DNA from: a virus
Taxonomy: Duplodnaviria; Heunggongvirae; Uroviricota; Caudoviricetes
Length of the DNA stretch: 50,710 nt
Virus record (IMG/VR): IMGVR_UViG_2877285697_000009
Reading direction: 5' to 3' (one strand)
Shown here: piece by piece, positions 29,066-29,410 of the stretch
Layout of the letters: every line of letters begins with the position of its first letter
Numbering within the stretch: position 1 is the stretch's first letter
The notes under the pieces: generated by a model
Databases searched by the model: none
What the model saw: the letters and a program-made list of their open reading frames with translations, nothing else
Told to the model about the DNA's origin: nothing
Translations under genes and position numbers: made by a program

Positions 29066-29410
29066 TCAGGCCAGCGGTGGAGTCTTCAGAGAACCAGTAA
29101 TTATTCCCGGTAGTTTTCCTCTGTAGGTTATCAACACATCCTGCGCCTCTAAAATTACGGGGCGCTTTTCCGGCGACTGCTCATCCCCTTCACATAACCC
29201 GGCAGCAACATCCAGGAAGACCTGTCTGATGCTCCTTCTGGCTGCTGCCTCATAAAACTCCAGCGCGGCACCTTCAACACGGTCCAGCGAGATGTCCAGG
29301 TCAAAAATTTCACCGTCAAAGCGTTTTTTGTCCCGTAACGCTAAAGTTACCGTAACTTTATTCTCAAAATTGCGGATCCCTTTCACAATCAGTTCATAGT
29401 TTTGAGTCAT
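29066..29410 (-). CDS. Hypothetical acidic soluble protein (114 aa) embedded between holin and endolysin
   Basis: MTQNYELIVKGIRNFENKVTVTLALRDKKRFDGEIFDLDISLDRVEGAALEFYEAAARRS...; RBS GGGGAGAG upstream; no TMD; tightly packed with S and R. Confidence 0.55.
   Translation of the reverse strand: MTQNYELIVKGIRNFENKVTVTLALRDKKRFDGEIFDLDISLDRVEGAALEFYEAAARRSIRQVFLDVAAGLCEGDEQSPEKRPVILEAQDVLITYRGKLPGIITGSLKTPPLA

Follow-up and report, generated by a model that had tools for sequence, protein, structure and literature searches.

The element described here is a 114-amino-acid (aa) open reading frame (ORF) at positions 29066–29410 on the minus strand of the window, i.e. the whole 50,710-nt stretch of viral DNA that was analysed (IMG/VR record IMGVR_UViG_2877285697_000009). 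The ORF is intact, begins with an ATG at 29410 and belongs to the ydfR family (DUF1327, Pfam PF07041; PHROG 406). It is embedded in a lysis cassette of the same strand. Upstream lies a 71-aa class II holin of the phage 21 S type (gene S, 29415–29630, minus; PF04971, Phage_holin_2_1, “P21 holin S”, E 9e-33) with dual starts at Met1 and Met4, and downstream a 177-aa endolysin of the T4-lysozyme family (gene R, 28482–29015, minus; PF00959, Phage_lysozyme, E 2.8e-24). The N-terminus of the endolysin is hydrophobic and Gly/Ala-rich (YGLSAAVLALIAAGAP), like a signal-anchor-release (SAR) segment, and its translation contains the catalytic motif E-8-D-5-T. Four nucleotides (29411–29414) separate the holin stop codon (29415–29417) from the ydfR ATG, and a 50-nt spacer (29016–29065) separates ydfR from the endolysin ATG at 29015. 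A Shine-Dalgarno-like sequence, GGGGAGAG, was found in the last holin codons (29418–29425, minus), 7 nt 5′ of the ydfR ATG. An original prediction, made from the letters of this DNA, had placed a 114-aa ORF with a strong ribosome-binding site between an S21-like pinholin and a SAR endolysin; its coordinates, the ribosome-binding site and both flanking genes were confirmed. The product was also predicted to lack a transmembrane domain and to be acidic. No membrane segment was detected in it (maximal 19-residue Kyte-Doolittle mean 0.69, compared with 1.7 for the holin), nor any signal-like segment at the N-terminus of its translation, and the acidity proved to be mild (pI 5.2, with 18 D+E against 16 K+R).

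Profile searches, which the original prediction had recommended, assigned the ORF to a known family. It matched Pfam DUF1327 with E 3.3e-43 and 146.3 bits (gathering cutoff 25), residues 1–112 aligning with profile positions 1–92 of 93, and PHROG 406 with E 1.3e-67; taking PF07041 and PHROG 406, 2091 and 1085 together, the match is full-length and far above threshold. NCBI holds an identical protein, named “YdfR family protein”, on 64 contigs (Shigella dysenteriae; MULTISPECIES Enterobacteriaceae). No PHROG of the lysis category and no NCBIfam model matched the ORF, and no PADLOC family matched YdfR at E values up to 0.01.

The K-12 member of the family, YdfR of the cryptic prophage Qin (b1555, P76160), is 81% identical to the window protein over residues 1–74. 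It likewise carries PF07041 and lies between essQ and rrrQ with a 4-nt S–ydfR junction, the order being essQ-ydfR-rrrQ, then rzpQ/rzoQ. Unlike the window gene, with its 114 codons and 50-nt spacer, K-12 ydfR encodes 103 aa with an unrelated tail, and its stop codon overlaps the rrrQ start (ATGA). The order holin-ydfR-lysozyme was also found in BP-4795 (S-ORF47-R), vB_EcoS-783R2, E. coli 19AR1724 and Stx1a/Stx2c (Shiga toxin) phages, so that the recommended survey of related prophages readily recovered the S-orf-R arrangement, and a blastn search detected ydfR in 4349 of 5426 complete E. coli genomes (~80%). The gene had been called uncharacterised and its position unusual. As the DUF1327 family is here in its usual place, the premise of an unusual insertion fails: the 114-aa ORF is an ordinary, already known member of the catalogued YdfR/DUF1327 family. 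It had been added that the idea would fall if the ORF turned out to be a known conserved lysis-cassette component with an assigned function; it is such a component, but of a family without an assigned function.

By tblastn, ydfR was present in 101 phage records, chiefly Stx1a-, Stx2c- and Stx2-converting phages, and its carriers include plaque-forming or inducible phages (BP-4795, phage 86, 2H10 and the PhiR series). Among 5.8 billion clustered proteins, 323 clusters matched; those listed were nearly all named Escherichia or Shigella, and one was labelled Enterococcus faecalis. A scan of one genome per species detected DUF1327 only in Escherichia, Shigella and two metagenome-assembled genomes (MAGs) under other taxon labels. 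The records labelled “Veillonella parvula MAG”, “Bacillota MAG” (L009, L011) and “Enterococcus faecalis” (P0081) share 71–90% identity with E. coli ydfR and lie in E. coli-like surroundings, and were therefore judged to be probably binning or contamination artefacts, not a wider host range.

A scan of the minus strand from 27000 to 31000 revealed no promoter-like site, and no terminator-like site was found between S and R. Since ydfR has no promoter of its own in the scanned region and no terminator toward its neighbours, it is a straightforward inference that ydfR and the late genes would be carried on one transcript. The final 15 nt of the spacer before the endolysin ATG contained no Shine-Dalgarno sequence. 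A regulatory RNA hairpin in the ydfR–R spacer was considered and rejected, its fold z-score (0.36) being no better than that of shuffled sequence. The G+C content of ydfR (48.4%) is modestly lower than that of the holin (53.2%) and endolysin (55.4%) genes.

The family is built of a conserved core and a changeable tail. In the window protein the DUF1327 core corresponds to codons 1–76 (29183–29410, minus), with strands at residues 5–14, 18–27 and 34–43 and a helix at 50–74, and is followed by a variable C-terminal module, EKRPVILEAQDVLITYRGKLPGIITGSLKTPPLA (codons 77–114 and the stop; 29066–29182, minus). Alignments gave lengths of 103, 104, 114, 116, 176 and 183 aa for family members, all sharing a core of ~75 residues in front of a variable tail. 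The core motif (Y5-E-L-x-V-K, E46-G-A-x-L-E-F-Y-E54, F65 and L72) is present in the window protein and invariant in the alignment of close homologues; when distant homologues were added, Y53 was still invariant and L7 and E54 nearly so. When 1.84 billion representative proteins were searched with a profile, only 82 hits came back, including stand-alone cores of 71–76 aa and two tandem duplications. Pairwise ratios of nonsynonymous to synonymous substitution (dN/dS) over codons 1–76 ranged from 0.22 to 0.62, with dS up to 1.9. The core domain is under purifying selection, and these ratios, together with the DUF1327 and PHROG 406 matches, indicated that the ORF was a real gene and not a chance frame. 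Protein P0156 carries the tail segment EKRP...KTPP fused behind another N-terminus, indicating that the tail is a separate shuffling unit.

Structure prediction, also recommended earlier, succeeded for the core, and the fold searches that followed were uninformative. With distant homologues in the alignment, AlphaFold2 modelled residues 1–75 confidently as three antiparallel strands packed on a long helix; the predicted local distance difference test (pLDDT) score was 79–94 over residues 1–70 and below 50 at 78–90 and 96–114, so the C-terminal module was modelled with low confidence. With the 17 close homologues alone the model was unusable (pLDDT 45.7). Foldseek found no PDB structure with an E value below 0.1 and no viral model below 0.04, and a profile search of PDB sequences gave no match. 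On another contig, L191, a 70-aa ORF (2532–2744) located 5′ of tail gene M has three DUF1327-like strand-like segments followed by ...SLSVVEEKIFTEAKKQLKQL and is below hidden Markov model detection; proteins of this fold may thus extend beyond the Pfam family.

Comparison with related phages indicated that ydfR is optional. Phage records with an S21-type holin (434) are about four times as many as those with ydfR (101). The junction at GGGGAGAG was compared between the window, Stx2a_F723, K-12 and BP-4795. In Stx2a_F723, which has no ydfR, S and R are adjacent, with 4 nt from the holin stop to the endolysin ATG, and it is the endolysin gene that has this GGGGAGAG in front of it. The endolysin start in that phage is thus the ydfR start site here, indicating that ydfR occupies a translation start that otherwise serves R. 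The locus survey covered 88 related loci, 85 of them Escherichia loci with DNA upstream of ydfR, and the distance from holin stop to ydfR start was 4 nt in 85 of 85. Distances between ydfR and the endolysin gene among the 88 loci were −4, 50, 55, 63, 321 and 343 nt.

Sharp steps in identity surround the gene. In the window and BP-4795 the colinear S-to-R block is 1149 nt in both, with identities of 91% in S, 61% in ydfR codons 1–76, 94% in codons 77–114, 100% in the spacer and 93% in R, so the ydfR N-domain is a divergent island (32–37% at its lowest in 60-nt windows) between flanks of 91–100%. ORF47 of BP-4795, like the “YdfR family protein” of Stx1a/Stx2c phages, shares with the window a (near-)identical C-terminal module, stop and spacer, but has another N-domain allele: aa identity over the whole protein is 67.5%, and divergence is greatest in β2–β3, where the two alleles (codons ~17–37, about 29300–29362) read DKKRFDGEIFDL in the window and EIGGYPSLLLPDV in BP-4795. 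Identity to the closest E. coli relatives is ~99% across the holin gene and on into ydfR as far as about codon 112. In one of them (L001) S is 100% and ydfR 97% identical; blastn identity was 99.2% up to 29075 and resumed at 29059 with 92%, placing a mosaic breakpoint at the ydfR 3′ end (29060–29075, minus). At this breakpoint the closest relatives have an extra 308 bp, absent from the window, with a convergent 90-aa ORF. The identity steps against BP-4795, the breakpoint against L001 and the variable ydfR–R distance show that ydfR, and its N-terminal domain especially, behaves as an exchangeable module between recombination junctions.

Morons, a concept of Hendrix and colleagues exemplified by lambda bor and lom, in their classic form bring a promoter and a terminator with them and are expressed in the prophage state. 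The window gene resembles them in being present or absent between colinear late-gene regions (101 against 434 records; S and R adjacent in Stx2a_F723), in its lower G+C content (48.4% against 53.2% and 55.4%, a modest difference) and in having relatives at classic insertion points. It differs from them in being co-oriented with the late operon, 4 nt from S, with a ribosome-binding site embedded in the holin gene and no promoter or terminator of its own found. The original prediction had offered an accessory (moron) gene or a lysis regulator; presence and absence, base composition and the distant sites described below favoured the former, and the latter gained no direct support.

The contigs of ten distant homologues were identified. 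The genes lie between tail genes M and L (L094, L108), L and K (L095–L098) and I and J (L103), and upstream of unrelated holin families (L099, L101); the remainder were on contigs too short to judge. These tail and lysis sites are places where accessory genes are classically inserted in lambdoid late operons, and the occurrence of distant homologues outside S21 cassettes argues against a role tied to the phage 21 pinholin. In 10 of 10 a small gene on the opposite strand lay at the 3′ side, at a spacing of −4 to +49 nt. Among the close E. coli loci, the convergent 90-aa ORF (PHROG 2411; 4701–4973 in L001) overlapped the ydfR 3′ end in 55 of 88, and the 183-aa form of ydfR had a convergent 88-aa ORF. 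Another convergent partner was seen in L006 (3500–3766), and further ones in L093–L110.

The partners fell into at least three unrelated groups by BLASTP and MAFFT, so that a single partner family was rejected. None had a Pfam or PADLOC match (8 partner proteins searched against PADLOC, E up to 0.01). When the search was started from the partner side, a convergent DUF1327 gene was found in 17 of 20 loci of a 99–101-aa partner family and ydfR in 79 of 80 loci of the 90-aa partner, the latter being nearly clonal and hence not independent observations. A 182–186-aa partner family was without DUF1327 in all six viral contigs, and obligatory pairing was therefore rejected: the association of DUF1327 with a convergent gene is strong but not obligatory. 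In L191 (1814–2140) a different 108-aa ORF replaced DUF1327 opposite a 99-aa partner. Partner-less ydfR genes were those of the window, K-12 and BP-4795 and the 116-aa form; in the window, the lack of a partner is explained by the 308-bp difference at 29060–29075.

Several small phage proteins, namely T4 Srd, T7 gp0.7 and phiKZ Dip, have been reported to bind RNase E. YdfR differs from these modulators in showing no detected sequence or fold similarity to proteins of known function. A fragment of K-12 YdfR comprising residues 1–72 was isolated from a two-hybrid library screen with RNase G as bait and gave a stronger signal with RNase E (PMC13232886); this fragment coincides with the conserved core. 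Full-length K-12 YdfR gave a two-hybrid signal with RNase E 1–597, the catalytic half, and thus binds the catalytic N-terminal half, as reported for T4 Srd; RNase E 1–598 co-purified with Strep-YdfR, as did RNA/DNase-resistant nucleic acid (PMC13232886). Elsewhere, overexpression of ydfR raised the minimum inhibitory concentration of streptomycin threefold (PMC12924614), and the ydfR copy of strain CFT073 gave a sigma-S-dependent run-off signal (PMC3141248).

We propose that the window gene encodes a small, soluble and probably cytoplasmic YdfR protein and belongs to an optional module, which sits between holin and endolysin in the phage-21-type cassettes of lambdoid prophages of Escherichia and Shigella. 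Its message would be the late Q-dependent transcript, shared with S, R and Rz. Translation would start from the Shine-Dalgarno sequence inside the end of S, the one used by the endolysin gene where ydfR is absent. YdfR would stand outside the core lysis machinery, as the product of a moron-like accessory gene, with the ~75-aa β-β-β-α N-domain as its functional unit and the tail as a swappable appendage. By transfer from K-12 YdfR, the core would bind the catalytic N-terminal half of RNase E, also RNase G and perhaps RNA, and such binding would adjust the turnover of RNA in late infection or under stress in which the prophage is expressed. To this explanation as a whole, an intact YdfR-family accessory protein at the S/R junction that may target RNase E/G, we give a probability of about 0.6. 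Its RNase E step is more tentative: binding by the window allele is argued by analogy from its 81% core identity to K-12 YdfR, and is somewhat doubtful when taken by itself.

Some observations weigh against the proposal. Overexpression of ydfR altered very few transcripts and left growth unaffected (PMC13232886), and the interaction with RNase E is known for the K-12 allele only, under overproduction. The strict S–ydfR linkage (85 of 85 loci) could reflect a functional tie to the pinholin. Moreover, the prophage is degraded by insertion sequences (IS), so ydfR may lack its natural late-gene expression here.

The linkage to S leads to an alternative in which YdfR regulates the timing of lysis, either by binding a cytoplasmic part of S21 or, by position alone, by taking the strong ribosome-binding site and so lowering or delaying R synthesis. 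With antiholins and holin antagonists such as S21-71, T4 RI and P1 LydB, ydfR shares a place beside the holin inside a lysis cassette. Besides the constant 4-nt distance to the S21-type holin in the 85 Escherichia loci, the inheritance of S and ydfR as one block in the comparison with L001 (100% and 97% identity) agrees with such a role, as does the translation of R: in the window, the 15 nt before the R start are devoid of a Shine-Dalgarno sequence, while phages lacking ydfR have R behind GGGGAGAG. Three distant homologues (L099/L100, L101) also adjoin lysis genes. But the membrane and periplasm are where pinholin and SAR endolysin act, and YdfR has no transmembrane or periplasmic domain and no targeting to either compartment (hydropathy maximum 0.69), unlike antiholins; it matches no lysis PHROG and is dispensable, most phages with the same holin lacking it. 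Several distant homologues lie inside tail modules, far from lysis genes, and N-domain alleles of ydfR that differ by 39% (DNA) stand beside holins that are 91% identical, which indicates no co-variation with S. ydfR is said to have scored in an envelope-integrity screen (PMC13232886), but the main text of the screen paper does not mention it. A search of the literature library found no paper linking ydfR with a holin, and essQ gave unrelated acronyms only. We regard a lysis-timing role as unlikely.

About equally improbable in our view is that the window gene is the orphaned half of a two-gene cassette, in which DUF1327 would regulate or neutralise a convergent partner (an antisense moron with probable expression in the lysogen) or that partner's transcript; having lost this partner, the window gene may be idle. 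The regular convergent neighbours would fit this (10 of 10 distant homologues, the 90-aa partner in 55 of 88 loci and the 88-aa partner of the 183-aa form), as would the partner-side counts with DUF1327 (17 of 20 for the 99–101-aa and 79 of 80 for the 90-aa family), and the window differs from its close relatives by the loss of exactly the partner segment. The distribution of partners over at least three unrelated families, however, argues against specific protein-protein pairing; the 182–186-aa partner does without DUF1327 in six of six viral contigs, the 90-aa loci are nearly clonal, and forms without a partner (K-12, BP-4795, the 116-aa form and the window) are frequent and intact and show purifying selection. 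A broader and still less probable idea joins this pairing with the RNase lead: the DUF1327 core might be a mobile module of enterobacterial siphophages, placed preferentially upstream of convergent, lysogen-expressed antisense morons, and might serve as an RNase E/G adaptor, e.g. clearing or tuning overlapping sense and antisense transcripts, the window gene being a partner-less derivative fixed at S/R. Least credible of all is that ydfR is non-functional filler, a decaying remnant or over-called ORF of a defective prophage. An IS66 element in the large terminase gene and an IS3-family element in nanS-p mark a degraded prophage, and the C-terminal third of YdfR is variable and poorly modelled; yet the frame is intact, the identical product occurs on 64 contigs, dN/dS is well below 1 at high dS, the profile match is strong, and plaque-forming or inducible phages (BP-4795, phage 86, 2H10, the PhiR series) carry the gene. 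An accessory protein, perhaps aimed at RNase E/G, remains our preferred explanation.

The remaining genes of the lysis region were also annotated. Downstream of the endolysin, between it and Rz, is a basic 71-aa ORF with a C-terminal hydrophobic segment (28143–28358, minus; PHROG 1115), just upstream of which lies a strong terminator-like hairpin (13-bp stem, 28359–28391); BP-4795 and Stx2a phages have an antirepressor gene in the place of this ORF. The Rz spanin gene (27527–28000, minus; PF03245, E 7e-50) contains Rz1 (27589–27774, minus), a 61-aa ORF with a lipoprotein-like N-terminus. Between Rz/Rz1 and the small terminase gene Nu1 is a 113-aa ORF (26608–26949) with a TonB C-terminal domain (Pfam E 1.4e-14). 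Directly 5′ of the holin gene is a DUF826 gene (region 29706–30149; PF05696, E 3.8e-36, residues 59–131), whose probable start is at 29975 (29706–29975, minus), L001 having a 270-nt DUF826 coding sequence at the corresponding place; a terminator-like hairpin (29669–29696) lies between it and the holin gene.

The prophage is very probably defective. The large terminase gene (20734–25410) is interrupted by an IS66-family element (TnpA-like 23785–24462, TnpB 23438–23785, DDE transposase 21871–23418), leaving an ATPase part at 24499–25410 and a nuclease domain split into two ORFs (21195–21764 and 20734–21207). A nanS-p-type esterase gene (DUF1737/SASA/DUF6645; region 30330–33557) is split by an IS3-family element (orfB 30625–31443, orfA 31479–31781) into an N-terminal part (31833–33557) and a C-terminal remnant (30330–30719); this insertion has the Q gene on one side and the lysis cassette on the other, and so could exert a polar effect on late transcription. 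Other features of the window are the Rfam small RNA STnc100 (33780–33985), three tRNA genes (Arg-tct, Arg-tcg and one with a CAT anticodon; 34061–34310) downstream of the Q and methylase genes, and the Rfam C4 antisense RNA (41432–41519) and isrK (41544–41620), in or next to an Ash/Rha-family ORF (40829–41980).

The copy of ydfR in this window is by itself of little importance, being a named and routine component of many E. coli and Shigella prophages. The family, in contrast, is a reasonable target for follow-up: it is among the most widespread E. coli prophage genes without an assigned function, and its presence in the lysis cassettes of Shiga-toxin phages, the RNase E lead and the recurrent convergent small genes add to its appeal. 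Once worked out, the role of YdfR could account for the way in which these phages deal with host RNA decay, or with antisense morons of their own, at late stages of infection.

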